This document shows positions 2,947-37,676 of a stretch of 64,000 nucleotides of DNA, piece after piece; position 1 is the first letter of the stretch, and every line of letters begins with the position of its first letter. Below the pieces are notes generated by a model, which did not search any database, was not told the DNA's origin, and was given only the letters and a program-made list of their open reading frames with translations. The DNA is from Myxococcales bacterium (GTDB lineage: Bacteria > Myxococcota_A > UBA9042), in the NCBI GenBank assembly GCA_009692425.1, contig SHZF01000004.1, forward strand, positions 10,175-74,174, read 5' to 3'. The translations under genes and the position numbers were made by a program.

Positions 2947-3044
2947 GGGCGACCTCGCTGGGAACCGGCAGACGCGCGTATGAGGGCGTCGAAAGCGGGC
3001 TTGCGTGCTGCAACGCTACTGCGCGGTGCGCGCGCGAACAAGGA

Positions 3045-4848: not shown

Positions 4849-4853
4849 CGACG

Positions 4854-6178: not shown

Positions 6179-7030
6179 GTGACACGCGCCTCCCTCGATA
6201 CGGGCAGTCCTTGCCACCATGCAGGCGACGGCCCCCACTGCGTCCTGTGCGGCGCGAACGCAGCCGGCCAGCGGGTCCCAGCCGAGAACGCGCCGATTGC
6301 GGTGGATGCTGCCGTGCGCGGAGCCCTCGACGGTGGAGCGACGGCCATCGTGCTGCGCGGTGGCGACCTGCTGCAGCGCCCCGACGCGCTCGACATGCTG
6401 GCCCGGGCGACGCAGTTCGGGGCACGCGACATCGAAGTGTGGACGGCGGGCCGGGCCTTGGCGCGGGCCGGCGCGGCCGAGGCAGTGCGGGCGGCCGGCG
6501 TGACTCGTGTCGCCATCCCCCTGCACGGCGACACGGCGGCGGCCCACGATTGGGTGGTGGGGCAGGCAGGTGCCTTCCAGCAAGCGCTCGCGGCGCTGAA
6601 GCGGGCGCGCGCTGCCGGTCTGCGCACGACGGTGCTCGCGTCGGTCGTGCGTCCGACGTACCGCCAGTTAGGCGGACTCGTGCAGAAGGCGCTGGCGCTG
6701 CAGGTCGATGGTTTCCGCTTCATCCGGGTCGATGGGACGGAGCGCGAGCGCAATCCCCTGCTCGCGCCGCCGGCGCTGGCGGGTCCGTGGGTGGCGAGCG
6801 CTGTCGTGCGAGCCGAGGCCGCACGCCGGCGAGTCGCCATCGAGGGGTTGCCTGCGTGCGTGCTCGGAACTGCCGCCGCGCACATCGAAACGGGCCTCAG
6901 CGGCTCCGGCGAGCAGGGGCCGCCGTGCGCCACCTGCACATGGCGCGCGCGCTGTGCCGGCATGCCGCCGCTTGCCGTGGTCGCGCACGGGTGGACCGCA
7001 ATCGAAGCCCGCCGGGATGTGCCGCACTGA
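6179..7030 (+). CDS. Radical-SAM-like protein with a noncanonical Cys spacing (C-x8-C-x2-C instead of CxxxCxxC) and a Cys-rich C-terminus; GTG start.
   Basis: SPCHHAGDGPHCVLCG at the N-terminus. IVLRGGDLLQRPD resembles the GGEPLL(R)xD SAM-binding block of the MoaA/PqqE type. C-terminal CVLG...CATCTWRARC. Strong GC3 bias in this frame supports coding. Confidence 0.55.
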   Translation: MTRASLDTGSPCHHAGDGPHCVLCGANAAGQRVPAENAPIAVDAAVRGALDGGATAIVLRGGDLLQRPDALDMLARATQFGARDIEVWTAGRALARAGAAEAVRAAGVTRVAIPLHGDTAAAHDWVVGQAGAFQQALAALKRARAAGLRTTVLASVVRPTYRQLGGLVQKALALQVDGFRFIRVDGTERERNPLLAPPALAGPWVASAVVRAEAARRRVAIEGLPACVLGTAAAHIETGLSGSGEQGPPCATCTWRARCAGMPPLAVVAHGWTAIEARRDVPH

Positions 7031-7274
7031 CGGGCGGGAGTCGCGCGCCTCCGGTATCGGCAACCGAAACGCCCATAGAAGCAACAATCTCGCTGGCGGG
7101 GCTTGCAATCCGCACGGTCTGGACCCCATCCTGCAAGGCGCGCAATCTGCGGTCGCCCGATCGGGTCGGCCGCAGCGAACCCCGGAGCCGTCCCCCGGCC
7201 GATCGGTTCGCAGCGCCAGTCCGCAGCGAGCGGCCCACCCGGTGCCGCCGCGCGACCTTGGGACGGAGCCAGTC

Positions 7275-9281
7275 ATGACGAGCGTCTCGCCGCCACAACC
7301 TCCGCTGCCGGGCGACTCGGCCTCGGGCAGCATCGATATCGCGGCCCTGGTGGCTTCGGGCCTGCTCACGCGCGATGAAGCCCGCGCGCTGGAACACGCC
7401 CAGCAGGCCGAGACCGGTGCGGGCAGCCTCGTGCGAATGGAGGCTCTGCCGGAAACGGGAGGAGGCGGCGATCAGAAAGACGCGGTGAAGGAAACCGCGA
7501 TGAAGCACAAGCGCCACTGGGTACGCGTGACCCGTGTGTGCAACCAGCGCTGCACGTTCTGCCTGGATTCGATGAACCAGGACGGCTCGATGGTCGACGT
7601 CGAGTCGCTCAAGGCCTACATCCTGCTCGGCCGCCGCATGGGCCGCGAGCGCCTGATCCTGTCGGGCGGCGAAGCGAGCGTGCACCCGCAGTTCATCGAT
7701 CTGATCCGCTACGGCCGCCAGGTCGGCTATGACTGGGTGCAGACCGTCACCAACGGCATGATGTTCAGCTACAAGCGGTTCGCGCAGGCGGCGGCGGACG
7801 CGGGCCTCAACGAGGCGACGGTCTCGATGCACGGCCACACCGCCCACTTGCACGACAAGCTGACCGGCACGCCGGGCGCCTTCGTGACGGGCGTCAAGGG
7901 GATGCAGAACCTGCAGGCCACCGGCCAGGTCGTCGTCAACGTCGATGTCGTGATCAACAAGCAGAACTACAAGGCGCTGCCTGAGATCATCGAGTACTAC
8001 CACGACCGGCTGGGCATTCGGGAATTCGATCTGCTGCACATCATTCCGTTCGGCCGTGGCTTCGACGAGCACCGCCACTCGCTGTTTTTCGACCTCAACG
8101 ACGCCGTTCCGTATTTCCGCAAGGCTTTCGCGTGGTCGCAGAAGCCGGGCGTCTACCTGTGGACGAATCGCCTGCCGGTGACGTACCTGGAGGGCAACGA
8201 GAAGCTCATCCAGGACCCGCACAAGTTGTTCAGCGAGTTCGATGGCGGGCGGCACAATTTCGAGGGCTTCCTGCGGCGCGGGCTCAAGCCCGACTGCCAC
8301 GGCGAGCGCTGCGACTACTGCTTTCTCGATGGGCCGTGCCGCCAGACGATGTTCCCGTACCGCACGATGCTGGAGGCGGGCTCGTTCCCGGCCGTGCGAC
8401 TCGATGCGCGCCACGTCTGGCAGGGCACCGAGGCGCGCGCCAAGTTCGAGAGCCAGCGACCGCAGCGGGTGAAGCTGACCGCCCGCGACGCCGAAGAAGC
8501 TGCCGGCGCGTTGGATCGCCTGCCGTTTGCCGGCGCGGACGTCACCGTCGAGTTGGCGGCGGGCGCCGCGACGACCGCCCTGCACGGACTGCCCCAGGTG
8601 CGGCGCTTTGCTGTGGCCACCGTGGCCGACGCCGCCCGCATTCTGCAAGGCCCGGATGCCGTGCCCGCGCCGCACGAAGTCGAGGTCCGACTCGACCAGC
8701 CATTGGCCGCATGGCTGCTGGAACATGCCGAACTGGTGGCGCAATGGGGCAAGCGACTGGTGCTGACGCTGCGCACCCACGAATACCTGTCGGAGTCGCA
8801 GGCCACCGACCCGGACCCGGCGTCCTTGCGCGCACTCGCGGCGCTGGGGGCGCGCACGAAGAACGTGCCGAAATGCATGACGGGGACCGCAGCCGAGCCC
8901 CACGACCATCAGGTACTCGACGCCACCTTGCTCGACGGCGCCGGGCACCTCGACCTCGACCGCTACGTCAACCACTTCGTGGTCGAGGAGTACTTCGCCA
9001 AATCGCTGCGCTGCGGCCGCTGCGCCGAGGTCGATCGCTGCCACGGGGTGCACGTCAACTACGTGCGTAACCATGGCTTTGCGGTCATGGCCCCGCTCGA
9101 CGAAGCGGGCCTGCCGCTAGCGGACGCCGAGAGCTTCGACGACCTCGCGAAGAAGGTCGCCGATGCCACCGCCCGCCGCGAAAAGCGCGAGCGCGACAAG
9201 CTGGTCGGCATGCACCGGCCGCGGCTGCTGGAACCCACCGGTCTCGCGATCGGCCGGGTCGAAGAGACCGCAGGAACCTGA
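7275..9281 (+). CDS. Radical SAM enzyme, 668 aa, with a 75-aa N-terminal extension and a long C-terminal extension carrying SPASM-like Cys clusters. An alternative internal start at 7500 (MKHKRHW) has a good RBS.
   Basis: CNQRCTFC (CxxxCxxC), ILSGGEASVHPQF (GGE motif), HGHTAHLHDKLTGTPG, then CHGERCDYCFLDGPC and CGRCAEVDRCHG. The 6708 start of the track ORF is rejected, since the upstream part is an Arg-rich frame artefact. Codon GC3 bias begins at 7275. Confidence 0.85.
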   Translation: MTSVSPPQPPLPGDSASGSIDIAALVASGLLTRDEARALEHAQQAETGAGSLVRMEALPETGGGGDQKDAVKETAMKHKRHWVRVTRVCNQRCTFCLDSMNQDGSMVDVESLKAYILLGRRMGRERLILSGGEASVHPQFIDLIRYGRQVGYDWVQTVTNGMMFSYKRFAQAAADAGLNEATVSMHGHTAHLHDKLTGTPGAFVTGVKGMQNLQATGQVVVNVDVVINKQNYKALPEIIEYYHDRLGIREFDLLHIIPFGRGFDEHRHSLFFDLNDAVPYFRKAFAWSQKPGVYLWTNRLPVTYLEGNEKLIQDPHKLFSEFDGGRHNFEGFLRRGLKPDCHGERCDYCFLDGPCRQTMFPYRTMLEAGSFPAVRLDARHVWQGTEARAKFESQRPQRVKLTARDAEEAAGALDRLPFAGADVTVELAAGAATTALHGLPQVRRFAVATVADAARILQGPDAVPAPHEVEVRLDQPLAAWLLEHAELVAQWGKRLVLTLRTHEYLSESQATDPDPASLRALAALGARTKNVPKCMTGTAAEPHDHQVLDATLLDGAGHLDLDRYVNHFVVEEYFAKSLRCGRCAEVDRCHGVHVNYVRNHGFAVMAPLDEAGLPLADAESFDDLAKKVADATARREKRERDKLVGMHRPRLLEPTGLAIGRVEETAGT

Positions 9282-9312
9282 TCGGCACGAACGCGAGGAG
9301 GCAGGGTCCGCC

Positions 9313-10539
9313 ATGGCGAACATCGGCTACATCCAGATGGTGCGCCACTGCAACCAGAACTGCGGGTTCTGCTCGAATCCGGAGACGCCGTTCTTCCATG
9401 ATCTCGAACAGGTCCACCGCATCGTCGACGACTTCGTGGTGCGCGGCTACTTCGGCGTGATCCTGACGGGCGGCGAGCCGACGTTGTCGCCCATCCTGCC
9501 CGATGCCATTCGCTATGCGCGCGCCCAGGGCCTGCACGTGCGCATGATCACGAACGGGCAGAAGCTCGCGGACCCGGCGTACTGCGACACGGTGTGGCAG
9601 GCGGGGCTGCAGCACGTGCACGTGAGCATCCACAGCCACAAGCACAAGCTCGAGGACTTCCTGACCGGCACGCCGGGCTCGCTGGACTGGGCCGAAAAGG
9701 CGTTGGCGAACCTCGCCAAGACCGACATCACCGTCAACATCAACACGGTGATCAACCGCTACAACTGCGACCACCTGCACGAGAACATCGAGTGGTTCAT
9801 CGAGCACTTCCCGTTCATCCGGCACTTCGTCTGGAACAATCTCGACCCCTCGATCGGCCGGGCGACGACGAACAACTACTTCACGCCCAAGCTCAAGGAC
9901 CTCGAAGTCTCGCTGCACAAGGCGATGCGGCGGCTGCACGAGACGGGGCGCTCCTTCCGCGTCGAGCGCGTGCCGCTGTGCTACATGACTGAGTTTGCCC
10001 ACTGTTCGACGGAGACGCGCAAAATCGTGAAGTCCGAGGAGCGCATCGTCCACTTCCTCGATCAAAAGGGCACCGTACGGCAGACGGAATGGGGGCACTT
10101 GTACGCCGACGTGTGCGAGACGTGCACATTGCGCTCGGTGTGTGGCGGCCTGTTCGATCGAGGCGATGCCTACGACCCTGCGGAGTTGAGTCCCGTGTTC
10201 GTCGATCCGCGGCCGATCGTGCAGCGCATCGTCGACGATCTGCAGTCAGACCCGGCGTGGCGGCGCGAGAAATTCAAGAACCTCGCGACCCTGCCGTCGC
10301 CGCATCAGGGCCAGCGCTACCGACCGGGCAAGGTGCAGGCGCCCACCGGCGAGCGCCTGGTCGAGCCGAGCCGTGACCCGAAAAAACACCAGGACCCGAC
10401 GGCGCGCGACTGGCACCCCGCGGACGATGAACAGGACGCCGATTTTGGCCTTTTGGTGCCGGCTGAGACCGAGTCTGAGCGCGCCGCCGCCCCTGGCCGC
10501 GTGCCCTTGGACCGGCTGGCGGCGGAACGGGCGCCTTGA
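9313..10539 (+). CDS. Radical SAM enzyme, 409 aa; paralog of the preceding gene; disordered ~90 aa C-terminal tail.
   Basis: MANIGYIQMVRHCNQNCGFC, ILTGGEPTL, HSHKHKLEDFLTGTPG (same H-x-H-x3-L-x2-LTGTPG block as the 7275 gene), CETCTLRSVCGG. Confidence 0.85.
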   Translation: MANIGYIQMVRHCNQNCGFCSNPETPFFHDLEQVHRIVDDFVVRGYFGVILTGGEPTLSPILPDAIRYARAQGLHVRMITNGQKLADPAYCDTVWQAGLQHVHVSIHSHKHKLEDFLTGTPGSLDWAEKALANLAKTDITVNINTVINRYNCDHLHENIEWFIEHFPFIRHFVWNNLDPSIGRATTNNYFTPKLKDLEVSLHKAMRRLHETGRSFRVERVPLCYMTEFAHCSTETRKIVKSEERIVHFLDQKGTVRQTEWGHLYADVCETCTLRSVCGGLFDRGDAYDPAELSPVFVDPRPIVQRIVDDLQSDPAWRREKFKNLATLPSPHQGQRYRPGKVQAPTGERLVEPSRDPKKHQDPTARDWHPADDEQDADFGLLVPAETESERAAAPGRVPLDRLAAERAP

Positions 10540-10563
10540 CGTGCGGACGCGGCGGGCACCGGG

Positions 10564-10604
10564 TAGCCAGCGGGTCCTCTATCTGGCTAGCCAACGCGTC
10601 CTCT
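10564..10604. promoter_or_regulatory. Imperfect 17-bp direct repeat (tagccagcgggtcctct / tagccaacgcgtcctct) that also forms a TAGCCAG...CTGGCTA hairpin, in the 142-bp gap between the second radical SAM gene and the small-ORF pair.
   Basis: Read directly from 10561-10610. Confidence 0.35.
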
Positions 10605-10680
10605 GCCTTGAAGCCAACAGCAACGTGAAGTAAGAAGCCGCCCCGGCGGCACCCTCCCCCGGCGGGACCATGGAGCGATA

Positions 10681-11199
10681 ATGAGCGAACATTCGATCGA
10701 GACCTTCGACGCCGCTGCGGGCCGCATGACGCTGGCGCTCGACACCGGGCTGTATCCGCTCGAGGTCGTCTACGGCGCGGCCTACATCTTCATCGACCGG
10801 GCGTTCGTGCTGCTCGACCGCGAAGGGGAATCGGGCCAAGGCCGCTACCTCGTGCACCTGCGCACCAAGCAGGGGGCCGACGAGACGAAGCTGCGCGCGC
10901 TGTCCGGCGAGTTCGGCAACGAGCTGCTGAGCCAGGCGTTGCGGCGCAAGGTGGTCAAGGCGAACCAGAAGATCATCGAGGAGATCACGACGCAGGCGAT
11001 CGCGGGGGCAGCAGGCGGCGCGTTGCCGACGGACTTCCTGGGCGGTGCCGACGACGGCCTCGACTTTCTCGATGACCCGCTCGGCATCGCGGTGCCGTGG
11101 GAAGAGAAGTTCAAGAAGAAGAAGCCCGATGCCGCCGACCCGACCAGTGCCGCGGCCATCGCCGACGCCGCCGGTGGTACGGGCGAGGCCAAGCCATGA
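10681..11199 (+). CDS. Hypothetical 172-aa protein: structured N-terminal ~110 aa, then an acidic/Gly-Ala-rich low-complexity tail. Candidate precursor or scaffold of the radical SAM cassette.
   Basis: Complete ORF with coding-like composition. Its stop TGA (11197-11199) overlaps the ATG (11196-11198) of the next ORF in an ATGA. Confidence 0.55.
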   Translation: MSEHSIETFDAAAGRMTLALDTGLYPLEVVYGAAYIFIDRAFVLLDREGESGQGRYLVHLRTKQGADETKLRALSGEFGNELLSQALRRKVVKANQKIIEEITTQAIAGAAGGALPTDFLGGADDGLDFLDDPLGIAVPWEEKFKKKKPDAADPTSAAAIADAAGGTGEAKP

Positions 11200-11429
11200 C
11201 GGCCGCCGTCACGGTCAAGCTGCACCGGACGCTCTACATGCAGCAGGCACTCCAGGAGGCGGGCCAGGCCTTTGCGGAACTCGCCTCGTTCGAGATCGTG
11301 CGCGACGGCGAGTACTACGCCGTGCACATCGCCGACATCGACGCCGAAGTCGAGGGTGATCTGGTCGCTGAGTTCTGCAACCACGCGCTGGTCCACACGT
11401 GGAACCGCAAACGGAAAACCGTCGCATGA
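11196..11429 (+). CDS. Hypothetical 77-aa protein (MTAAVTVKLHRTLYMQQALQEAGQAFAELASFEIVRDGEYYAVHIADIDAEVEGDLVAEFCNHALVHTWNRKRKTVA). Possible small partner/RRE-like or HxsD-like accessory protein.
   Basis: ATGA overlap at both ends (11196/11199 and 11426/11429). The track's longer ORF 11097..11429 has an Arg-rich N-terminus that I reject. Confidence 0.5.
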   Translation: MTAAVTVKLHRTLYMQQALQEAGQAFAELASFEIVRDGEYYAVHIADIDAEVEGDLVAEFCNHALVHTWNRKRKTVA

Positions 11430-12925
11430 GCTACCTCGCCGGCCTGAACCTCGACGATGTCCCCGCCGATCGGCTCGTGCCGTTCAATCACCGTGCCGTG
11501 GGCGACCGCGTGCTGGTGTCGAACGATCTCGGCGATCACGTGTTCCTAGCGCCCGGCGAGTTCCGTGCGTTCGTGACGGGCCAGGTTGCCGCCGACACCG
11601 ATCTGTACGGCAAGCTGGCAGCGGCCAACCTGTTCGCGGCCAGCATCGACGTGGGCAAGCAGGCGGAACGCTGGCGCCGCAAGAAGCAGTACCTGTTCGT
11701 CGGGCCGACGCTGCACGCGTTCGTGTTGACGCACCGCTGCAACCACGGTTGCCAGTACTGCCACTCGTCGATCGTCGGCATGACGCGCACCGACACCGAC
11801 ATGCCGATCGATGTCGCCGAGCGCGCGGTCGACCTCGCCTTCCAGACCACGAGCCCGAGCCTGACGATCGAGTTCCAGGGCGGCGAGCCGTTGGCGAACT
11901 GGGAGGTGCTGCAGCACATCGTCGAGTATGCGCGGCAGAAGAATGCGCTCGCCGGCAAGAACCTGTCGTTCGCCCTCGTCACGAACTTGTCGCTGATGGA
12001 CGAGGAGCGGCTCGACTACTTGCTCGACCGCAAGGTGCAGTTGTGCACGAGCCTCGACGGCCCGGCAGACCTGCACAACAAGGTGCGCATCTATAAGGAA
12101 GGCGACAGCCACGACCTCGTGATGAAATGGATGGCGCGCATCAACGAGCGCTACGTCGAGATGGGCCTCGACCCGAACTTGTACCGTGTCGAAGCCTTGC
12201 CGACGATCACGCGCCACGCGCTGGCGCGGCCCAAGGACGTGGTGGACCAGTACGTGGCATTGGGCTGTCGCGCGGTGTTCCTGCGCAAGCTCGATCCGTT
12301 CGGGTTTGCCGCCCGCACGGCCGGCACGCTCGGCTATTCGATGGACGAGTTCCTCACGTTCTACCAGGAGGCGGTGGACTACATCATCGAACTCAACCGG
12401 CGCGGCGTGCAGGTGATGGAACGGCACGCCGGGATCATGCTGTCGAAAATCCTCAACGACGACGAGCCGAACTACCTCGACCTGCGCACGCCGGGCGGCG
12501 CGGTGACAGGGCAGCTCGGCTATGCGCCCGACGGCGGCGTGTACTCGTCGGACGAGGGGCGCTTCGTGGCGGCGATGGGCGACGAGATGTTCCGCATCGG
12601 CACGGTGACGGACACGTACCACCAGATCGTGACGAACGCGCAGACCCGCGCGCTCGTGATGGCGGGACTCAACGACGGGCAGCCCGACTGCGTGACGTGC
12701 GTGTACAAGCCCTGGTGCGGCCAGCAGGTGGAGTACAACTACAAGACGCAGGGCTCGATCCACGGCCGGATGCGCGACTCGGTGTGGTGCCGCAAGCACA
12801 AGACGATCTTCGACTACCTGATGGGCAAGCTGGCCAAGGCGAACGCCGAAGACCTCGCGATGTTCCAGCGCTGGACCACGAACCGAACGCTGGATCATTT
12901 CATGCAGGAACGCGGAGCGTTGTAG
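11426..12925 (+). CDS. Radical SAM / SPASM-domain maturase of the AtsB/anSME-like class, 499 aa, with a ~100-aa N-terminal domain before the Cys triad.
   Basis: CNHGCQYCH (CxxxCxxC), IEFQGGEPL, C-terminal CVTCVYKPWCGQ ... WCRK (SPASM-type). The start MSYLAGLNL at 11426 overlaps the previous stop. Confidence 0.85.
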   Translation: MSYLAGLNLDDVPADRLVPFNHRAVGDRVLVSNDLGDHVFLAPGEFRAFVTGQVAADTDLYGKLAAANLFAASIDVGKQAERWRRKKQYLFVGPTLHAFVLTHRCNHGCQYCHSSIVGMTRTDTDMPIDVAERAVDLAFQTTSPSLTIEFQGGEPLANWEVLQHIVEYARQKNALAGKNLSFALVTNLSLMDEERLDYLLDRKVQLCTSLDGPADLHNKVRIYKEGDSHDLVMKWMARINERYVEMGLDPNLYRVEALPTITRHALARPKDVVDQYVALGCRAVFLRKLDPFGFAARTAGTLGYSMDEFLTFYQEAVDYIIELNRRGVQVMERHAGIMLSKILNDDEPNYLDLRTPGGAVTGQLGYAPDGGVYSSDEGRFVAAMGDEMFRIGTVTDTYHQIVTNAQTRALVMAGLNDGQPDCVTCVYKPWCGQQVEYNYKTQGSIHGRMRDSVWCRKHKTIFDYLMGKLAKANAEDLAMFQRWTTNRTLDHFMQERGAL

Positions 12926-13071
12926 ATGGCGGCACGCACGAGAAACACGCCGCTGCGGTTTGAACCGATGCGCGGGGGCGTGCTAGCATGGTGCGTTCAT
13001 GCAACGCGCAGTCGGCCGGGTACCTCCGCCCCGTCGGCATGACGCGGCCGGGCCTGCGGGAGCCCTTCGCC

Positions 13072-16000
13072 ATGCGCCGATTCTGCGACCGTGCCCGAAT
13101 CCGCCCGTGGCGCCTTGCGCTCGCGTGGCTGGCGTGGGCGGCTGCGTGCACCGAAGAACCCTTGCAGCAAGGGTCGCTCGACGCGATTGGCGCCGACACG
13201 CGCGGAACCGGCGCCGACGCGGCCCCAGACACCGCGACGGTCGATGCCAAGCTGACGGACGCGGCCAGCGACGCCAAGTCCGACGCCGCGAACGACACGA
13301 AAACCGACGAGAAGACGGACAGCGCGGGCCCCGACAGCGCGATCGACAACGGCGCCGACGGCCTGCTGGACACGGCGCCCACCGACGATGCGGACGGGAT
13401 CGTCGATGAATTCGCTGCCGATCAGGACGGACCAGACAGCGCTGGCACCGATGCGGACGCTGCGGGCACCGTGGACGCCGGCGCGGGAGACGCGCCTCCC
13501 AACGTCAAGAGCGTGCATTCGAATGCGTGCACCGCGGCCAGCGACTGCCTGATCCCATGTGCATCGGGCAACTGCGTGGCGGGCACGTGCAGCTATCAGC
13601 CCAAAGGCAAGGGCTGCGTGGCCGACCTCGGCGGCGGCAAGGTGGGCTGCTTCGGCCCCGGCGACACGAGCGACGACAAGCCCTGCCTCGTGTGCCAGCC
13701 GTTGGTGTCGAGTACGGCGCTGACGACGGCGCTGTGGGTGAATGGCCTCGACGGCGAGCCGGGACTGCAGTTCGCCGACACCGCGGGCGCCGGCATCGGC
13801 TGGGGATTCAGCGACAAGAAGTCGAAGTCGGGCGGCAAGTCGCTGTGGTTCGGCGACCCCAAGACAGGCAACTACGCGATAGGCAAGGCGGTCGGCGGCA
13901 CGGCGACCTTGCCGGAGACGAAGGTGCCGCAGTTCAGCGGCACGCAGCCCAAGGTCGCGTTCTGGCTGTGGCTCGACACCGAGGAGTTCGACGGCCACGA
14001 CGTGCTGACGCTCGGCGTGCTCGAAGGCGGAGCCACGAAGGTCCTGTGGACGTCGGACGCGATCAAGGGCACCACGGGTGGCGCATGGCAGCGCATCGAG
14101 GCCGAACTCGTGGGCTACGGTGGCAAGACGGTGGCGCTGCAGTTCGGCTTCGACTCAAAGGACGAGGTCGCCAACACGTTCAGTGGCCCCTTCCTCGACG
14201 ACGTGGCCGTGCTGTCGGGCTGCTGCGCCGGGGCCGCGGATTGCGACGACGGCAACGCGTGCAGCGACGACAGTTGCGCGGCGGGAGCGGGCGGCCTGCC
14301 CCTGTGCAGCCACGCCAAGAAGGCCGGGTGCTGCTCGACGTCGGGCGACTGCGACGACAAGGTGTTGTGCACGTTCGATCTGTGCTCCGGGCCGGGCGGC
14401 ACGTGCAGCCACAACGCAAAGCCCGGCTGTTGCCTGACCGACAACGGCTGCGACGATGGCAACGCGCTGACGATCGACAAGTGCGTGGCTTCGAAGTGCC
14501 TGATCATCGACACCGCGTGCAAGTCGGACGCCGACTGCAAGACGAACGATCCGTGCCAGAAGGGGTCGTGCCAGGCCGGAATCTGCGCGTTCCAATCGAC
14601 GTGCTGCATCGCCGACAGCGAGTGCGACGACTTCAACCCGTGCACGATCGACGGCTGCGACAAGGGCAAATGCGTCACCACGGCATCGACGGTGCCGGGC
14701 TGCTGCTCGCCCCAGCCACTTTTCAACCAGTTCGGCAGCAGCGACGAGGGCTGGACGTCGGGCCCGGCGTCGCCCCAAAACAACGACTGGCATTGGAAGG
14801 CGCTGCCGTCCGCAGTCAGCCCGCCGGGCGCCCTGCACTTTGGATTGAAAGACAAAGACATGGGGCTTACGGCCAGCCAGCCGCAGTCCAAGATCACGAC
14901 GGCGAGCCCGCCGATCACGCTGCTGCCCGGCAAGGAAGTGACGTTCAAACTCTGGTACATGTCGGACATGACGGCCGCCAGTGGCAACGTGCGGGTGTTC
15001 GCGGTGGTCGACGGCAAGGAGGTGACGTTCGGCTACCTGAGCCTGAACACGAGCAAGAAGTGGACGACGTTCGGCCCGTATGACCTCTCGCCGGCGATGG
15101 GCAAGACGATCCAGATCAAGCTGGAGATGACGCTGACACCCGTTGGCTCGGTCACGGGCACCGGGCTGTGGGTCGACGACTTCGAGGTGAATTCGACGTG
15201 TCAGGCCAAGAAGTGCGCGGCCTCGGGCACCTGCGGCATCGGTGCGATGCCATGCGTGGCCGGCGTGTGCACGGACGGTCAGTGCACGTACCCGAACGCC
15301 TGCTGCGTCACGAGTGCCGACTGCGCCGACCAGAACCTGTGCACAAGCGACGTGTGCGTGAACACGAAGTGCCAGTTCAACCCGATCGCGAAGTGCTGCA
15401 TGGGCAGCGGCGACTGTGCCGACGGCAACCCGTGCACGCAAGACATCTGCCCAGCGCCCGGCCAGATCTGCCAGTGGCCGCCGGTGCCCGGCTGCTGCCT
15501 GTCGTCGGTCGAATGCAATGACAGCAACGCGTGCACGAAGGACGGCTGCATCCTGAACAAGTGCGTCAACGAGAACACGTGCTGCAAGGTCGACAAGGAC
15601 TGCGACGACAGTGAGACAAAGTGCACGGTCGACAAGTGCGTGGCCCAGATCTGCACGCACACGTCGACGGGCGCGGCCGGTTGCTGCTCGCCGATCGTGT
15701 GGGAGAACGACTTCGATCAGGGCGACCTCAAGGGCATCAAGGTGCAGAACTCCGCTGGCGCCAAGGGCTGGAACCACTGGCCGAACGCGCAGTTGTCGAA
15801 GTCGGGCAAGGGCGTGCTGTACTATGGCGATCCCGCGGTCGGCAATTTCGACTTCAGCTTGTCGAGCGGCACGGCCAAGACGCTGGCGATCCAGTTGCCG
15901 GTGTCGACGCCGTCGCACATGACGTTCTGGCTCTACATGGACACCGAGCAGGGCCCGCCCTACGACTCGCTCGCCGTGCGCGTCTACGTCGATGGCGCCC

Positions 16001-16191
16001 AAAATCCGGTGTGGGAAAAGAACCAGAACGGCTACACGGTGCTGAAATGGACCGAGATCAAGATCGACCTCGCGAAGTGGGCCGGCAAGTCCATCGAGAT
16101 CGAGTTCTACTTCAACACGGTCGATTCGGTGGGCAACAGCGGCAAGGGCGTCTTCGTCGATGACCTGAAGGTCGTGACGGCGTGTCCATGA
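13072..16191 (+). CDS. Giant secreted lipoprotein, 1039 aa. It has a D/A/T-rich linker, then several MAM-like beta-sandwich modules separated by C-x-D-x-N-x-C-T-x-D-x-C cysteine-rich repeats.
   Basis: MRRFCDRARIRPWRLALAWLAWAAAC signal and lipobox. Repeats CDDGNACSDDSC, CDDKVLCTFDLC, CDDGNALTIDKC, CDDFNPCTIDGC, CADQNLCTSDVC, CADGNPCTQDIC, CNDSNACTKDGC. Modules with LWFGDP / FWLWLDTE / GPFLDDVAV...C and a C-terminal GKGVFVDDLKVVTAC (MAM-like ...DD..(V/I)...C ending). Confidence 0.85.
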   Translation: MRRFCDRARIRPWRLALAWLAWAAACTEEPLQQGSLDAIGADTRGTGADAAPDTATVDAKLTDAASDAKSDAANDTKTDEKTDSAGPDSAIDNGADGLLDTAPTDDADGIVDEFAADQDGPDSAGTDADAAGTVDAGAGDAPPNVKSVHSNACTAASDCLIPCASGNCVAGTCSYQPKGKGCVADLGGGKVGCFGPGDTSDDKPCLVCQPLVSSTALTTALWVNGLDGEPGLQFADTAGAGIGWGFSDKKSKSGGKSLWFGDPKTGNYAIGKAVGGTATLPETKVPQFSGTQPKVAFWLWLDTEEFDGHDVLTLGVLEGGATKVLWTSDAIKGTTGGAWQRIEAELVGYGGKTVALQFGFDSKDEVANTFSGPFLDDVAVLSGCCAGAADCDDGNACSDDSCAAGAGGLPLCSHAKKAGCCSTSGDCDDKVLCTFDLCSGPGGTCSHNAKPGCCLTDNGCDDGNALTIDKCVASKCLIIDTACKSDADCKTNDPCQKGSCQAGICAFQSTCCIADSECDDFNPCTIDGCDKGKCVTTASTVPGCCSPQPLFNQFGSSDEGWTSGPASPQNNDWHWKALPSAVSPPGALHFGLKDKDMGLTASQPQSKITTASPPITLLPGKEVTFKLWYMSDMTAASGNVRVFAVVDGKEVTFGYLSLNTSKKWTTFGPYDLSPAMGKTIQIKLEMTLTPVGSVTGTGLWVDDFEVNSTCQAKKCAASGTCGIGAMPCVAGVCTDGQCTYPNACCVTSADCADQNLCTSDVCVNTKCQFNPIAKCCMGSGDCADGNPCTQDICPAPGQICQWPPVPGCCLSSVECNDSNACTKDGCILNKCVNENTCCKVDKDCDDSETKCTVDKCVAQICTHTSTGAAGCCSPIVWENDFDQGDLKGIKVQNSAGAKGWNHWPNAQLSKSGKGVLYYGDPAVGNFDFSLSSGTAKTLAIQLPVSTPSHMTFWLYMDTEQGPPYDSLAVRVYVDGAQNPVWEKNQNGYTVLKWTEIKIDLAKWAGKSIEIEFYFNTVDSVGNSGKGVFVDDLKVVTACP

Positions 16192-18452
16192 GTGCACAGC
16201 CGATCGACGGCGGGATTTGCGGGGAACGCACGGCGCGGTCTGGGCCGGAGCGGGCGGCCCTGTGGAGCATGAGCGCGTGGGCGGCCATCGCGTTGTCCGT
16301 CGCGGCGTGCGGGGGCGAGGACTCGCCGAAGAAAGCCGACGCCGATGCTGCCAGCGACGGGGCGGGAGCAGGCGCCGAGACGGCCGACGATCTGGCTCGC
16401 GTGGCCGACATCGACGAACCCGACAGTGCGGCACGTAGTGATGCCGCGGGCACCGATCTGACTGTGAACGACGCCGCCCCCGCCGACGAGGCGACGCCCG
16501 ACGTGCCGCCGGACGTGCCGCTTGCCGACCTCGGTCAGGACGTCCCGACGCCGGTGGACATTGCGCAGTGTGCGACGGGCACCGACTGCGCCGGCCTCCT
16601 GAAGTTGCAGCCGTGCGAACAGGCCACCTGCGTTGCCGGCCAATGCAAGCCGGAGCCGAAACCGGACCAGTGCTGCACCGATGCCGACTGCAACGATCAG
16701 GGCGAGTGCGTGGCGGGCAAGTGCGACACGGGGGCGCATGCGTGCCTGTACACGCCGATCCCGAACTGCTGCAGCGGCAAGGTGACGCTGCTCAAGACCT
16801 CGCTTGAGGGCGCCCCGTTCGAAGACGTGAGCGCCCAGGAGTCGCCCCAGAACGGCAATGTCGCGTGGGGCGAATCGACCACGCGCGCCCACTCCGGCAA
16901 GAAGGCGCTGTACTTTGGCAACGCCTGCAAGACGTACGACAACAGCCTGAACGTGGCGAACGGTTGCAAGGTCGGCGGTGCGTCGACCCCGATCCAGTCG
17001 GCGCTCACGACGAAGGAGCACGCGCTGCCCAAAGACAAGAAGGCGCAGTTGCACTTCTGGCTGTGGCTCGACACGGAATCGCCGTATGCCGACACGCTGC
17101 CCAAGGGGACGTGTGCGACCCCGTGCGTGGCGGGCGCGGCGTGCATTCAGGTCAACGGTCAGTCGCAGTGCGTGCCGGAAAAGGATGTGCTGACCGTCAG
17201 CGTGCTGCAGGGCGAGACCGCGACGTCGGTGTTCTCGTCGCTGCAGATCGGCAAGTCGACGAAGGGACAGTGGCTGCACGTCGCGGTCGACCTGTCGAAG
17301 TGGGCCGGCCACTCGATCAAGGCGCAGTGGGCGTTCGCAACGGGTACGAACCTGAAGAACGGCTACGAGGGCATCTACCTCGACGACCTCGTGATCGAGA
17401 CGAACTGCACGGAAAAAGGCGCGTTCTGCGACGAAAAGGCGCCATGCCAGGATGACGCCAACGCGTGTACTCAGGACGTGTGCACGAAGTACGCCAACAA
17501 CGCGGGACTCGGCGTGTGCTTTGCCGACAAGAAGGTCGGTTGCTGCACGGTCGTGTCCGAGTGCGCGGACGGCAACGCGTGCACCCTCGACGCCTGCAAT
17601 GCAAGCCAATGCTCGTGGAAGCCGGACGCGACGAAGCCGGCATGCTGCAAGGCCGAAGTGCTGGCGCCGCTGGAGGACTTCGAATCCGGCACGCTCGACG
17701 TGTGGTCGGTGTTCGAGTCCAACTCGACCATCTCGAAGTGGCGGCTGCACCCGACCGGAGGCAACGCGGGCCAGGCCCTGTACTTCGGCACCGAAGGCCT
17801 CGACACTTACGCGGACCCGGCGCTCGGCAAGGACTTGGGACCCAAGGGCACGATCTGCATGGACAAGGTCAAGATCAAGCAGGGCTCGCTCCACGACCTC
17901 GTAACGTTCGACCTGCAGATGGAGACGGAGTGGACCGGCTTGCCTGCGACGACCTACAAGAATCCGCCGGTCGCTGGTGGCAAAAAATTCGACGCGCTGG
18001 CTGTCTCCGTGTACCACAACGGCACGTTTACTGAGGTGTGGTCGTCGGATGCGGTGCTCGGAACGACGGGGGGACAGTGGTTGCCGGTGACGGTCGCGCT
18101 CGACGCCTTTCAGGGCCAGACGGTGCAGTTGTGCTTCGCTTTCGACGCGGGCGACGGCGCGGTCAACGACAAGGCCGGCGTGCGACTCGACAACGTGCTG
18201 GTCAAGGTCGCATGCAGCAAAAAGCCCTGCTATTTCGCAACGGAATGCAAGGCACTGTCTTGTGGCACGTGCAAGGTGCCGATATGCGACGGGGCCGGTT
18301 GCCAGTGCGTTGCGGTGCCGGATTGCTGCACGGCGGCGCAGGACTGTGACGACGGCGAAACAAAGTGTACGATCGACAAATGCGGGGCCGACGGCAAGTG
18401 CGTGCACGAGCCAACGGGGTTCGCCGATTGCCCGAACGCGGGCGGCAAGTAG
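16188..18452 (+). CDS. Giant lipoprotein paralog 2 (~755 aa), with the same MAM-like plus Cys-rich repeat architecture. The start could be ATG 16188 (ATGA overlap with the upstream stop), GTG 16182 or ATG 16269.
   Basis: Signal MSAWAAIALSVAACGG. Motifs KALYFGNACKTYDNS, FWLWLDTESPYAD, YEGIYLDDLVIETNC, CADGNACTLDAC, CDDGETKCTIDKC. Confidence 0.8.
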   Translation: MSAQPIDGGICGERTARSGPERAALWSMSAWAAIALSVAACGGEDSPKKADADAASDGAGAGAETADDLARVADIDEPDSAARSDAAGTDLTVNDAAPADEATPDVPPDVPLADLGQDVPTPVDIAQCATGTDCAGLLKLQPCEQATCVAGQCKPEPKPDQCCTDADCNDQGECVAGKCDTGAHACLYTPIPNCCSGKVTLLKTSLEGAPFEDVSAQESPQNGNVAWGESTTRAHSGKKALYFGNACKTYDNSLNVANGCKVGGASTPIQSALTTKEHALPKDKKAQLHFWLWLDTESPYADTLPKGTCATPCVAGAACIQVNGQSQCVPEKDVLTVSVLQGETATSVFSSLQIGKSTKGQWLHVAVDLSKWAGHSIKAQWAFATGTNLKNGYEGIYLDDLVIETNCTEKGAFCDEKAPCQDDANACTQDVCTKYANNAGLGVCFADKKVGCCTVVSECADGNACTLDACNASQCSWKPDATKPACCKAEVLAPLEDFESGTLDVWSVFESNSTISKWRLHPTGGNAGQALYFGTEGLDTYADPALGKDLGPKGTICMDKVKIKQGSLHDLVTFDLQMETEWTGLPATTYKNPPVAGGKKFDALAVSVYHNGTFTEVWSSDAVLGTTGGQWLPVTVALDAFQGQTVQLCFAFDAGDGAVNDKAGVRLDNVLVKVACSKKPCYFATECKALSCGTCKVPICDGAGCQCVAVPDCCTAAQDCDDGETKCTIDKCGADGKCVHEPTGFADCPNAGGK

Positions 18453-18521
18453 GGGCCGAAGTGCTCGCCAGCGGGGATCGGGACCTCGCAGGCAGCCTCA
18501 GCGTGTGTGTGGAGGGATGTG

Positions 18522-21500
18522 ATGGTGTGCAATGATCCAGTGGGCAAGGGCAATCTCGCGGCGTGCGCACAAGGGGCCCGCCAGTTTCTTGCGGGCCTGG
18601 GGCTCCTCGCGGCCGCTGTCGCGTGCGGGGACCCGGTCGCGACGGCCAAGACCGCGCCGGCAACGCCCGACACGACTGACCCAGATGGTGGGCAAGATGG
18701 CACCGAACCGACCGACGCACCTGCCGTGGTCGACACTGCGGCGCCGCTGGATGGCGATGCCGCCATCGAAGCGAAGGGTCCCGAACTGACCGATGCACCG
18801 GACATCCAGACGGCCCCGGACGTCGGTTGCCTGACGGACAACCAATGCGTGGGTGCCGTGCCCGTGACCGGTTGCACCGTGGCCGTCTGCCAGAAAGGCC
18901 TGTGCATCTTGGGGCCCAAGCCGGGGACGTGTTGCGACGACGCGCCGTGCGACGATGGCGTGCAGTGCACGAAGGACAAATGCGACGTGGCGACGAACAC
19001 GTGCCAGAACGCCCCGATTGCCGGGTGCTGCCAGAACCAGAAGAAATACTTGAACGTTGGCTTCGAGCAGGCGCCGGTGGGCGTTGCCGCGACGTACGAG
19101 GGCTTCGTGCAGAGCCCCGACCCGAAGGACGCCTCCTACCCGAACGGCAACGTGAAGTGGCAGGTCGAGACGCGGCGCGCGCACTCGGGCACCCACTCCC
19201 TGTACTTCGGCAATGAATGCGGAACGTACGACTCGGAGATGAAGGGGGCGCTCGCCTGCAAGGAAAGTGCGGTCTCGCTGGCCCTCTACACCGCGCTGAA
19301 GTCGAGTGAAGTGCAGATTCCGGCGGGCGAAGCCGCGCTGCTGTCGTTCTGGATGTGGGTCGACACGCAGCCGGTGCTGACGCAGTTGCATTGGACCCAG
19401 ACGCAGAAAGGGGAAAATGATTGCTCGCCGAAATGCGGCATCGGCGCCACCTGCGCGGCCAACGCGAACGGCAAGACGGAGTGTGTCAAGCAGCCCCAGA
19501 AGGCCGGCACCTGCAAGGTGCCGTGCGATCCCGGAACGACGTGTGTCGATGTCGGCGGCGGCAACTCGGCGTGCGTCAACGAGAGCGACGTGATGACGGT
19601 GCGCATCAACGGGGCGGTCAAGCCCACGCTGACCTCGACGGAATTCGACAAGTCGACCAAGGGGCAGTGGAAGCATTTCGTTGTCAACCTCGCGGAGTAC
19701 GCGGGCAAGTCGGTTCAGATCCTCTGGGAATTCAAGACGAACACAAATCGCAACGCCTACGAGGGCATCTACCTCGACGACGTAGGCATCGAAACGTACT
19801 GCGTGAAGAAGGACGAGAAGTCCGAGGGCTTCGCCAGCTGCGACGAGAAGACCGCGTGCCCCGACGACAAGAAGGAGTGCTCAGCCGACGTTTGCACGCC
19901 GTTCACGAACCTGAAGGTTCAGGGCCTGTGCCTGTACGACAAGGTGGCGAACTGCTGCGCGGGGTCGATCGACTGCGACGACGCGAAGGACTGCACGGTC
20001 GATGCGTGCAACAAGGCCGTCGGCAAGCCCACGGGGTCGTGTTCGCACAAGCCCGACTCGAACAAGGAGCAGTGCTGCAAGGCCGAAAAACTGTTCGGCG
20101 ACAACTTCGAAGCGGGCAGCTTGGCGGGATGGGCGACGGTGCTGAGCAACTCGCAGCAGGTCCTGTGGCAACTCCACAAGTCCGGCGGCACGGGCGGCGG
20201 CGCGGCGATGTACTTCGGCAACGCAGCACAGACCAACTACGACGACCCGACGATCAAGCCGAACGGGCCGAAGGGGCGTGTGTGCTCGGTCAAGAAGGTC
20301 AAGCTGACAGACACTGCGGCCTACAACGTCGCAAAGTTCCAGCTGAAGATGGAGACGGAGTGGTCGGGCAAGAAGAAGGAGAGCTACGTCAACCCGGCCG
20401 TCGTGCAGGGCCAGCCGGTCGAGAAGGTCGACTACTTGAACGTGGAAGTTCGCGTCGCTGGCGTCGTGCAGACCGTGTGGTCGTCAGACTCGGTGTACGG
20501 CACGACCGAAGGGCAGTTCCTGCCCGTGACGGTGGACCTGGACAAGTTCGCCGGCAAGGAGGTGGAGTTGTGCTTCTACTTCGACGCGGGCGATTCGGCG
20601 GCGAACGCAGCCAAGGGCATCACGATCGATGACGTGCAGATTGCGGTCGCGTGCGAAAAGGAAGTCTGCACGGTCGCCGAACACTGCGCAGCGGAGTGCG
20701 ACGCTGTGCTCGACACGCCATCGTGTGAGGCAGGCAAGTGCGTCTGCACGAAGATCCCCGGCAAGTGCAAGGACGACGCGTCATGCGACGACAAGGACAG
20801 TTGCACCGACCAGGCGTGCAAGTTGGGCAAGTGCGAATACACCATGAAGTCGCCAACGTGCTGCGCAGCAAAGACGCCTTACCAGGAGTCGTTCGATGCG
20901 GGCGTGGCCGGGGCGGCGCTGCCAACCGGGTGGAAGGTGACGGGCCTGCCGGGCACGGCGCTGAATGGCAAGCCGTATGACCAGACGATCAAGTGGAATA
21001 TCACGGACTTGAAGGCGAAGTCACCCCAATTTTCACTCTATTTCGGCAACAACGGCACCTACAACGCGGGGGCCTCGGCGCCCGGCGGGCTGGCGCGCAG
21101 CCCCGAAGTGACGCTGCCGGCCAACGGGACCACGCTCCTCACCTTTGCGCTGTTCCTGTCGACCGAGTGGGACCCGAATCCGAAGGACCCGACCAAAGTG
21201 TTCAAGGCGCCGCCCCCGGGCATCGTCGTCGACCGGCTGCGGGTGGGTCTGAACGACCCCAAGCAAGCCGACGCGGCCAAGGCCAATGCCTGGCTGTGGG
21301 ACAGCTACGCGATCGAAGGGACGACGGCGGGCAACTGGCAGGTCGTCGTCGTCGCGGTACCAGACGCCTGGAAGGGCAAGACCGCCAAGCTGCAGTTCGA
21401 GTTCGACGCCGGCCATGACAACAACAACATCTACGAGGGCGCGTACATCGACAACGTGCACTTGACGACGGTCTGCGATGTGCCGGAATGCGTCGAGGAC

Positions 21501-22163
21501 AAGAAGTGCGTGCCGGCGGTTCCCGACGTGTGCAAGAAGTACTACTGCTCGGCCCAGACCGTTGCCAACCAGCTGTCGTTTGCGTGCAAGGCCGACTTCA
21601 AGCCCGGCCCGACCTGCTGTTCTTCGTCGGTGGCGCTGGCGGCGGAGACGTTCGAATCGGCCAAGCTCGGCGCCTGGGCGGGGTCTTGCAACAACACGCT
21701 CGTGAAGTGGCAGGCGTCGCCGCACAAGTACTTGGCTGGCCTGTACGAAGCCTACATGGGCAACCAGGAGAAGCAGAACTACGCCGACGGCACGTCCATT
21801 GTGGTGTGCAGCCTGACGTCGCCGCTGGTGACGCTCTCGTCGGACCTCAAAAAGGAGGCCTTCTTGCAGTTCAAGGCGTGGATCGACGTCGAGACGAACT
21901 CTTTCGAGAAGTTGCGGGTCGTGGCGACGACGTTTGCCGGAAACCAGAAGCTGACGAAGGTGATTTGGGACAAGGCGGTGGCCAAGGACATGACCTTGGC
22001 GGAGTACAAGATGGCGATCGAGAAGAAGATCAACGTCTCGGAATTCAAAGGAAAGGGCGCCGTGTCGTTCAGCTTCGAATTCGACTCCCTCGACGCCAAG
22101 AAAAACGCCGACTTCAAGGGCGTGTACCTCGACGACCTGACGGTGACTGAGCCGTGCCTGTAG
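18522..22163 (+). CDS. Giant lipoprotein paralog 3 (1213 aa): four MAM-like modules interleaved with Cys-rich repeats.
   Basis: GGAGG RBS 6 nt before ATG 18522; the track's GTG 18507 is an alternative. Signal LAGLGLLAAAVAC. Motifs HSLYFGNECGTYDSE, FWMWVDTQP, YEGIYLDDVGIETYC, CDDAKDCTVDAC, NIYEGAYIDNVHLTTVC, FKGVYLDDLTVTEPC. Confidence 0.85.
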   Translation: MVCNDPVGKGNLAACAQGARQFLAGLGLLAAAVACGDPVATAKTAPATPDTTDPDGGQDGTEPTDAPAVVDTAAPLDGDAAIEAKGPELTDAPDIQTAPDVGCLTDNQCVGAVPVTGCTVAVCQKGLCILGPKPGTCCDDAPCDDGVQCTKDKCDVATNTCQNAPIAGCCQNQKKYLNVGFEQAPVGVAATYEGFVQSPDPKDASYPNGNVKWQVETRRAHSGTHSLYFGNECGTYDSEMKGALACKESAVSLALYTALKSSEVQIPAGEAALLSFWMWVDTQPVLTQLHWTQTQKGENDCSPKCGIGATCAANANGKTECVKQPQKAGTCKVPCDPGTTCVDVGGGNSACVNESDVMTVRINGAVKPTLTSTEFDKSTKGQWKHFVVNLAEYAGKSVQILWEFKTNTNRNAYEGIYLDDVGIETYCVKKDEKSEGFASCDEKTACPDDKKECSADVCTPFTNLKVQGLCLYDKVANCCAGSIDCDDAKDCTVDACNKAVGKPTGSCSHKPDSNKEQCCKAEKLFGDNFEAGSLAGWATVLSNSQQVLWQLHKSGGTGGGAAMYFGNAAQTNYDDPTIKPNGPKGRVCSVKKVKLTDTAAYNVAKFQLKMETEWSGKKKESYVNPAVVQGQPVEKVDYLNVEVRVAGVVQTVWSSDSVYGTTEGQFLPVTVDLDKFAGKEVELCFYFDAGDSAANAAKGITIDDVQIAVACEKEVCTVAEHCAAECDAVLDTPSCEAGKCVCTKIPGKCKDDASCDDKDSCTDQACKLGKCEYTMKSPTCCAAKTPYQESFDAGVAGAALPTGWKVTGLPGTALNGKPYDQTIKWNITDLKAKSPQFSLYFGNNGTYNAGASAPGGLARSPEVTLPANGTTLLTFALFLSTEWDPNPKDPTKVFKAPPPGIVVDRLRVGLNDPKQADAAKANAWLWDSYAIEGTTAGNWQVVVVAVPDAWKGKTAKLQFEFDAGHDNNNIYEGAYIDNVHLTTVCDVPECVEDKKCVPAVPDVCKKYYCSAQTVANQLSFACKADFKPGPTCCSSSVALAAETFESAKLGAWAGSCNNTLVKWQASPHKYLAGLYEAYMGNQEKQNYADGTSIVVCSLTSPLVTLSSDLKKEAFLQFKAWIDVETNSFEKLRVVATTFAGNQKLTKVIWDKAVAKDMTLAEYKMAIEKKINVSEFKGKGAVSFSFEFDSLDAKKNADFKGVYLDDLTVTEPCL

Positions 22164-23138: not shown

Positions 23139-23283
23139 TTCCAGCGGCGGTCACGAATCCCGCGCGGCAGACGTACCCGGGCGGCAGCGTCAAGTTCTGT
23201 GAAGTGCAGAGTTCAGTCCACGCGCCGGTATGCTACAAAGCGTGCAGCATGCGGCGCGACCGCAGCCCGACCGGAGTCGCAAC

Positions 23284-23985: not shown

Positions 23986-23991
23986 GCACCC

Positions 23992-37566: not shown

Positions 37567-37676
37567 GCGGGCAGGCCGACCACAGGCACGCAGGAGCGCC
37601 GCTTCGATCGGTCCGCGCAGAGCTTGTCGGATTCCCCGTCAAACTCCTAGACTCTGCGTCGCTGAGGGAGCCCACC

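Follow-up and report, generated by a model that had tools for sequence, protein, structure and literature searches.

In the present study we analysed a 64,000-nucleotide stretch of DNA of a Myxococcales bacterium (assembly GCA_009692425.1, contig SHZF01000004.1, positions 10,175 to 74,174 of the forward strand), called the window throughout, and within it a run of nine co-oriented genes at 6179-22163, designated here G1 to G9. As judged from family matches, G1-G6 are a variant of the His-Xaa-Ser (Hxs) maturation cassette, in which one HxsB is combined with two proteins of the HxsD family and with three radical SAM enzymes of diverged, HxsC-like type; G7-G9 encode giant Cys-rich lipoproteins and belong to a separate conserved block. 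Because the G+C content of the window is about 70%, codon-position G+C was used for gene calling beside the listing of open reading frames (ORFs), and all credible genes of the interval were found on the + strand.

The cassette begins with G1 (6179-7030), a radical-SAM-like paralogue of HxsC-like type, followed by G2 (7275-9281, 668 amino acids) and G3 (9313-10539, 408 amino acids), both HxsC-like radical SAM proteins with the canonical CX3CX2C motif. Then come G4 (10681-11199, 172 amino acids), an HxsD with a C-terminal tail, G5 (11196-11429, 77 amino acids), an HxsD-like protein representing a second, tail-less HxsD paralogue, and G6 (11426-12925), the HxsB of the set and thereby its radical SAM/SPASM maturase. 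A junction at 12926-13071 leads to three giant paralogous Cys-rich/MAM-like lipoproteins: G7, starting at 12988 or, likelier, at 13072 and ending at 16191, G8 (16188-18452) and G9 (18522-22163). ATGA overlaps are found at the G4/G5, G5/G6 and G7/G8 boundaries, and the remaining gaps are 31-244 nucleotides long. Products of 668, 408, 172 and 77 amino acids were likewise obtained in a second assembly, for which genes had been called separately. A preliminary description of the locus had listed co-oriented genes, ATGA overlaps, four radical SAM genes, two small ORFs and three giant paralogous Cys-rich MAM-like lipoproteins, and all of these are present.

Comparison with NCBIfam profiles places G4, G5 and G6 in Hxs families. 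The G6 product reaches 502.5 bits against TIGR03978 (HxsB, cutoff 370) with the full profile length covered, aligns along its entire length with annotated HxsB of plasmids at 34-35% identity, and is deposited in GenBank as 'His-Xaa-Ser system radical SAM maturase HxsB' of a Myxococcales metagenome-assembled genome (MAG; MSP90584.1). G4 passes the HxsD model TIGR03976 marginally (52.6 bits, cutoff 50), is 100% identical to a GenBank 'His-Xaa-Ser system protein HxsD [Myxococcales bacterium]' and has a precomputed Pfam assignment to PF27806 (HxsD), and G5 passes NF038315 (HxsD_rel, 'HxsD-like protein') with 63.3 bits at a cutoff of 41. Models of Cys-targeting maturases are failed by G6: it scores 94.3 against 425 required for SCIFF, 107.2 against 500 for CcpM, 101.8 against 340 for PapB and 72.4 against 349 for anSME. 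The earlier statement that the set could not be matched to Hxs was therefore wrong, since curated cutoffs place three of its members in Hxs families and GenBank names two of them, and the enzyme previously described as anSME-like is HxsB. What stood of that description is the notion of a maturation cassette, similar to those of ribosomally synthesised peptides that are modified post-translationally (RiPPs), with two small ORFs among its genes; the 172- and 77-residue products are unlikely to be its precursors, being HxsD-family accessory proteins.

The three remaining radical SAM enzymes are HxsC-like only, as none of them passes the HxsC model TIGR03977 (cutoff 267.9) or the HxsC4 model NF038332 (cutoff 500). 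G3 has HxsC as its best NCBIfam match (98.5 bits), and the best matches of G2 are HxsC4 (102.9 bits, the highest of the three on this model) and HxsC (84.7 bits). For G1, which matches PF04055 at 34.7 bits, the top NCBIfam matches are generic radical-SAM/SPASM models, and HxsC, at 48 bits, is the nearest relative of Hxs type. All three are 17-28% identical to annotated HxsC and have in common with it a C-terminal CxxCx5CxG motif. Individually, G2 contains CNQRCTFC and a C-terminal extension of about 330 residues with two Cys clusters about 240 residues apart, and G3 contains CNQNCGFC and a C-terminal CxxCx5CGG; the two are about 31-33% identical over the core, and GenBank labels the G2 product simply as 'radical SAM protein'. 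In G1 the expected CX3CX2C is replaced by CX8CX2C and a C-terminal CxxCxWxxxCxG is present, both Cys motifs being conserved in 15 of 16 aligned sequences, the one from the window included. The core of G2 and G3 also resembles MoaA and viperin-type enzymes (pVip, 41-73 bits). With PADLOC-DB 2.0.0 only generic viperin-family radical-SAM similarity was obtained for G2, G3 and G6, and no Hxs-named family was matched.

The G4 protein differs from the canonical HxsD, a protein of 96 residues without a tail, in its C-terminal peptide DFLDDPLGIAVPWEEK. The tail contains the motif D-(x)-x-DFLDDPLGIAVPWE (residues 125-141, positions 11053-11103 on the + strand), preceded by an AIAGAAG segment, invariant as well, and by an acidic linker that varies. 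Among 45 homologues, 52-75% identical overall, the tail residues F129, L130, D132, P133, L134, G135, I136, A137, P139, W140 and E141 are invariant; the mean column identity of the whole HxsD alignment is 39%, and it is the tail motif, not the HxsD domain, that constitutes its most conserved part. The motif was also found in 36 sequences derived from related loci and, as DDFVTDPLGIAVPWE, in a further locus, L074 (GCA_016218785.1). In the AlphaFold (AF2) model of G4, residues 1-110 are folded (predicted local distance difference test above 85) and the tail is disordered. A fold search of the Protein Data Bank with the HxsD model gave no match at E <= 0.001, the top ones being Rpb11/RpoL-like alpha-beta domains with template-modelling scores of about 0.35-0.55. 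HxsD as a peptide chaperone of PqqD type is unsupported, as no protein of RiPP recognition element/PqqD type is among the 50 matches listed for this model. A conserved small ORF was looked for in the G3-G4 gap of 13 loci and none was found. The small ORFs considered in related loci are those of loci other than the lower-G+C marine ones L044, L046, L047 and L050.

Scanning of GTDB species representatives with G6 yielded 65 loci encoding relatives at 46-78% identity, labelled mostly as Myxococcota, 'Deltaproteobacteria' and Binatia MAGs. The order G2-G3-HxsD-HxsD-like-HxsB is kept as in the window in 18 of them, with G1 present in 15 of the 18, and the cassette genes are intact at 39-83% identity; G2 orthologues in the same position are 65-71% identical and those of G3 75-83%. 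Upstream of HxsB, a tblastn match to G5 is present in 49 of the 65 loci, and in the loci mapped it stands directly between HxsD and HxsB. The genes lspA, lgt, uppS and cdsA lie divergently upstream of the cassette in many of the 18 loci, as they do in the window, and this neighbourhood is kept in at least 8 related MAGs, including L004/L075, L011-L014, L048 and L058. The 3' side of HxsB varies by clade, being occupied by two genes resembling those of outer-membrane proteins, by MBOAT, by an acyl-CoA ligase, by PhdYeFM/PIN with type II secretion genes, or by thymidine phosphorylase. At L075 a PhdYeFM antitoxin/PIN toxin pair (12362-12987) lies directly 3' of HxsB and illustrates this side of the cassette as a variable insertion point. 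In more distant Myxococcota a lone HxsB adjoins ileS, and tandem HxsB paralogues occur in L046, L047, L049 and L050, where a copy 25-32% identical to G6 accompanies one of 59-64% identity.

The giants G7, G8 and G9 contain 74, 51 and 67 Cys residues (5.5-7.1%), arranged with regular spacing in blocks between which MAM-like domains are placed. Over 688 residues G8 and G9 share 39% identity, and G7 is 24-34% identical to both. Their N-termini carry lipobox-like sequences (...AAAC, ...VAAC and ...AVAC) after a hydrophobic segment. The InhA-like MAM family PF20773 (cutoff 26.9) is matched at 36.8, 34.3 and 56.0 bits, respectively, and the Dictyostelium CTDC repeat (PF00526) below threshold. The Cys-rich repeats are most simply understood as disulfide-rich extracellular modules and not as radical-SAM substrates.

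About 50 orthologue clusters of G8 were found, at 44-54% identity. In four genome contexts the giants belong to a conserved series that runs from an Rce1-like gene through DksA, a sigma54/FHA activator and proteins of about 800 and about 550 residues to G7-like, G8-like and G9-like genes, and onward to a HEAT-repeat protein, a response regulator, a histidine kinase, a polysaccharide deacetylase, a FadL-like protein and MutY; the G9-like gene is absent from one of these contexts and broken up in another. No radical SAM gene is present within 10 kb upstream of the giants in any of the four. A fifth context, L073, has the trio, HEAT, response regulator and histidine kinase in the same order, on a contig that breaks off shortly before the G7-like gene. 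The closest parallel is L068, which corresponds to the window gene for gene from G7 through the FadL-like gene at 40-82% identity (G7 48%, G8 51%, G9 40%, the genes at 22224-27348 47-82%), and whose genes upstream of the G7 orthologue have no counterpart in the window. In L068 (2401-6713) and L070 (2602-6876) the giants are preceded by DksA, the sigma54/FHA activator, the familyless protein of about 800 residues and the TIGR04551-like protein of about 550 residues; the window lacks these four genes and has the Hxs cassette in their place. Homologues of G7-G9 were found in none of the 14 cassette loci, out of the 18, that extend at least 5 kb downstream. Moreover, two MAGs carry the cassette on one contig and the giant block on another (L007 and L068 in GCA_945889325.1; L048 and L070 in GCA_964356325.1). 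The contigs of L007 (CAMDBH010000033.1) and L048 (CAYHHL010000013.1) are labelled 'Klebsiella pneumoniae' and 'Enterobacteriaceae', and these labels look wrong because gene content and synteny match Myxococcales MAGs.

Because each block recurs with other neighbours, we regard 12.93-13.07 kb as the junction at which two synteny blocks abut, the downstream one being, by its gene order, a conserved Myxococcales block independent of the cassette. The preliminary description had allowed that the giants might be mere neighbours, and this is borne out by their own synteny and by their absence from the relatives of the cassette. It had also named lack of co-conservation as the finding that would speak against a link, and adjacency of the two blocks was not seen beyond the window.

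A substrate of the cassette was searched for as an ORF with at least three H-x-S in 40 residues. All six frames of the 64-kb window lack such an ORF, and none was found up to 10 kb from HxsB among the 18 closest loci; a like scan of the control loci L066 and L067 recovered HxsA and HxsA2. A gene of the HxsA4 family (NF038313) is also lacking in the window. More distant relatives encode peptides of 105-131 residues with about 8-18 terminal His-Xaa-Ser (HxS) repeats, mostly His-Gly-Ser, followed by a final Trp, and two representatives score 102.7 and 70 bits against NF038313 (cutoff 55). The HxsA4-type gene is directly 3' of HxsB in L061 and L074, about 7 kb downstream of it in L027, L032, L034 and L054, inverted, at a distance of 7-10 kb, in L017 and about 10 kb upstream in L031. 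In the Binatia-type loci it maps to L027 17905-18243, L032 10551-10880, L034 17932-18270, L054 17973-18302 and, on the - strand, L017 16222-16725. At L074 (1464-4348) a tail-bearing HxsD is followed by HxsB, an HxsA4-like peptide with a twin-arginine-type signal and an 82-residue HxsD-like ORF; no HxsC-like gene occurs in the 10 kb downstream, and as only about 1.4 kb of contig precedes HxsD, a copy upstream is possible.

HxsC-like enzymes number four or five in the Binatia-type loci. The five-enzyme cassette could not be identified with the curated HxsC4 system, its best score being 128 bits against 500 in the one locus compared, L035. These loci also encode, 3' of HxsB, an aKG-HExxH peptide beta-hydroxylase (TIGR04267, 83 bits, cutoff 40), which follows HxsB directly in 12 loci (L018, L021, L022, L024, L025, L027, L031, L032, L034, L054, L055 and L057) and is found no more than 10 kb from it in 17. 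This enzyme class occurs in RiPP pathways (PMC12636437), and its presence suggests that the branch bearing it may carry out additional tailoring chemistry. The leader of the Binatia-type HxsA4 contains PLDFLSP, which recalls LDFLDDP of the HxsD tail; this four-residue resemblance is a lead only.

Taking these observations together, we consider it probable that two independent blocks abut in the window, a variant Hxs maturase cassette whose HxS-repeat substrate is encoded elsewhere and an unrelated block of giant lipoproteins. The family assignments, the conservation of each block and the independence of the two are shown by the comparisons above, whereas the substrate, chemistry and biological role of the cassette are inferred as follows. 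By analogy with the Hxs system of E. coli, the enzymes would act in the cytoplasm, with the HxsD and HxsD-like proteins (G4 and G5) presumably serving as adaptors for the HxsC-like enzymes, and the target would be an HxsA4-type (His-Gly-Ser)n HxS-repeat peptide, the gene of which should lie, if anywhere in this genome, outside the window. The simplest reading is that the window cassette belongs to the HxsA4-associated branch, with its substrate gene unlinked or lost.

Several points weigh against this explanation. The proposed substrate is unobserved for the window subtype, as neither the window nor the 18 closest loci contain an HxS ORF. The scores of G1-G3 lie far under the HxsC and HxsC4 cutoffs, and by this measure their chemistry may differ from that of HxsC. 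The gap between G6 and G7 is only 62-146 nucleotides long with no predicted terminator in it, so the two blocks may be co-transcribed in this genome; the scan for promoters and terminators, covering 5.7-23.3 kb, returned counts at chance level. Finally, in two other lineages the region downstream of HxsB again encodes giant Cys-rich repeat proteins, though of different families.

One of these lineages comprises the marine Myxococcota loci L041, L051, L059 and L064, in which HxsB (60-69% identical) stands without HxsD or HxsC-like genes beside it. A giant of CTDC-repeat/MAM-like type (1200-1850 residues where full length) lies there 4-5 kb downstream of HxsB, and the three genes in between encode a protein rich in Cys, a short-chain dehydrogenase and a product of about 350 residues. 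In the other, the Binatia-type loci, the HxsA4 gene is situated between secreted Cys-rich repeat proteins of about 1250 (family c30) and about 700 residues (c11), and in L017 it still adjoins the c11 family despite inversion of the segment. The families c11, c30 and c24 were rejected as homologues of G7-G9, the similarity being weak, at the level of the repeat, and not above 36 bits. Giant Cys-rich repeat proteins are abundant in these phyla. A functional coupling of Hxs-type cassettes of Myxococcota and Binatia to giant secreted Cys-rich proteins, not necessarily as substrates but for instance as surface partners or anchors of the matured HxS-repeat peptide, seems to us improbable; if it were true, the window would be one of three independent instances, along with the marine and the Binatia-type loci.

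A more direct link, put forward in the preliminary description, is that the radical SAM enzymes modify the Cys-rich repeats of G7-G9, which would make these proteins a new substrate class; the modification would precede export. The giants do occupy the place that HxsA has in the canonical D-B-C-A operon, no more than about 150 nucleotides after HxsB, canonical HxsA is an exported protein modified before export as well, and the marine and Binatia-type loci just described can be cited in its favour. Against this stand the missing giants in all 14 informative cassette relatives, and the orthologous giants themselves, which reside in another conserved neighbourhood with no radical SAM gene in the 10 kb upstream and, in the two MAGs, on contigs other than that of the cassette. 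The giants have at most one H-x-S each and no HxS repeats, HxsB is far under the cutoffs of the Cys-targeting maturases, and the Cys-rich proteins near HxsB elsewhere share with G7-G9 no homology other than the short repeat. On synteny this proposal is refuted, and we find it very hard to credit. Cross-linking of Cys-rich lipoproteins of 700-1200 residues by radical SAM enzymes thus has no comparative-genomic support, for which reason the idea of a new substrate class should not rest on the locus in the window.

Within the cassette itself, the tail-bearing HxsD could be the substrate, with no need for HxsA: the folded HxsD domain would act as a built-in leader, HxsB and the three HxsC-like enzymes would modify the DFLDDPLGIAVPWE segment, and a conserved cofactor or signal derived from the peptide would result. 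This comes near the first proposal of the preliminary description, in which the products of the small ORFs are matured. In accordance with it, the motif is invariant in a protein otherwise of modest conservation and missing from canonical HxsD, the predicted disorder would make the tail accessible, the G3-G4 gap has no conserved ORF for a separate precursor, and no HxsA is encoded in the window or the 18 closest loci; the tail is moreover rich in Asp, and Binatia-type loci add a peptide beta-hydroxylase. However, L074 has the tail-bearing HxsD beside both HxsB and an HxsA4-type peptide, and Binatia-type loci also possess tail and HxsA4 together, which argues that the tail is no replacement for HxsA and weakens its candidacy as a stand-in. 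An invariant short motif behind a flexible linker suits a docking motif equally well, and HxsD of E. coli is an accessory protein that binds HxsC (PMC13128918). Because of the coexistence of tail and HxsA4, a docking role, e.g. in tethering complexes of HxsD and HxsC-like proteins to HxsB, is at least as likely as that of a substrate, and we hold HxsD as the substrate to be unlikely. A similarly low probability is given to an action of the HxsC-like enzymes on a small molecule, nucleotide or lipid, or to the cassette being a decaying remnant with its substrate gene lost. Such views could draw on the MoaA- and viperin-like core of G2 and G3, on the adjoining housekeeping genes for lipids and lipoproteins (cdsA, uppS, lgt and lspA) and on the lack of a linked substrate gene in the window subtype. 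Yet decay is argued against by six intact genes whose order is conserved across 18 loci, HxsB matches a peptide maturase at equivalog level, and the resemblance to MoaA and viperin is of a generic kind for the superfamily and lies far under the cutoffs of those families.

The surroundings of both blocks were also annotated. The divergent neighbours cdsA, uppS, lgt and lspA are at 2101-5837 on the - strand, as identified by Pfam matches, with lgt located by tblastn at 3898-4848 (73% identical). Following G9, the rest of the giant block in the window extends over 22224-27348 (+ strand) and consists, by Pfam matches, of a HEAT-repeat protein, an OmpR-type response regulator, a histidine kinase, a polysaccharide deacetylase and a FadL-like outer-membrane protein, in the order found in L068. 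Elsewhere the window has ordinary chromosomal content, such as two molybdopterin-dependent large subunits of aldehyde oxidase/xanthine dehydrogenase type (36936-40136 and 60545-63136) and a planctomycete-type PSD/PSCyt domain protein (51189-52925). No matches were obtained when the whole window was scanned for Rfam families and tRNAs.

When compared with known protein families, G7-G9 are similar to secreted proteins of myxobacteria in having lipoprotein-type signal peptides and the regular Cys spacing typical of disulfide-rich extracellular modules. They pass the InhA-like MAM family and match both choice-of-anchor J (NF038128) and the CTDC repeat weakly. The three-gene family with its HEAT and two-component neighbours shows no link to radical-SAM chemistry.

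For the cassette, the canonical reference is the HXS system HxsD-HxsB-HxsC-HxsA, reportedly predicted by Haft and Basu in 2011. We confirmed the D-B-C-A order in L066, and in annotated plasmid operons HxsA combines a signal peptide with HRSHSS repeats and with a C-terminal domain that matches families of peptidoglycan-binding/hydrolase type. The E. coli system was described as a broad antiphage system that blocks DNA entry (Li et al., Nat Commun 2026; PMC13128918), in which HxsB, HxsC and HxsD process and covalently modify the His-Xaa-Ser repeat protein, with a mass shift of +8 Da; HxsA is exported after its modification, and the mature form acts in the periplasm (PMC13128918). Systems defined via HxsA were found in Pseudomonadota in 99.7% of cases and ordered D-B-C-A in 99.6% (PMC13128918). 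The window cassette, unlike these, has three HxsC-like paralogues below the HxsC cutoff, one of them with CX8CX2C, and two HxsD-type proteins, one with the invariant tail. Its order is C'-C'-C'-D-D'-B, and no HxsA, peptidoglycan-binding domain or HxS repeats are found in the window. It also differs in its Myxococcota host and in its fixed chromosomal position by lspA-lgt-uppS-cdsA. It resembles the antiphage system in its equivalog-level HxsB, in an HxsD-family protein immediately upstream of HxsB, in radical SAM partners that share the HxsC core and the CxxCx5CxG motif, and in a presumed cytoplasmic radical-SAM maturation of a His-Xaa-Ser repeat protein.

The type-4 families of NCBIfam (HxsA4 NF038313, HxsC4 NF038332 and HxsD-like NF038315), for which no publication was found, form the second point of reference. 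Here the differences lie in the scores of G1-G3 and of the five L035 radical SAM enzymes, which do not exceed 128 bits at the HxsC4 cutoff of 500, and in the absence of an HxsA4 gene both from the window and from the vicinity of the 18 closest cassettes. The likenesses are that G5 passes the HxsD-like model, that G2 has HxsC4 as its best match, and that L061, L074 and the Binatia-type relatives encode peptides of HxsA4 type, two of which were tested and pass the model. The cassette is thus already partly named by GenBank and NCBIfam, and the literature searched holds no characterisation of it. Together with the 65 related loci, the window points to a widespread Hxs branch in Myxococcota and Binatia-like MAGs, beyond the Pseudomonadota-centred HXS. 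It is marked by three to five enzymes of HxsC-like type and by two HxsD-type proteins, of which one carries the invariant motif at its C-terminus; a peptide beta-hydroxylase is sometimes present, and the (His-Gly-Ser)n HxsA4 peptides may be linked or unlinked. The branch offers a second, chemically richer setting in which the action of HxsB, HxsC and HxsD on HxS repeats may be worked out.

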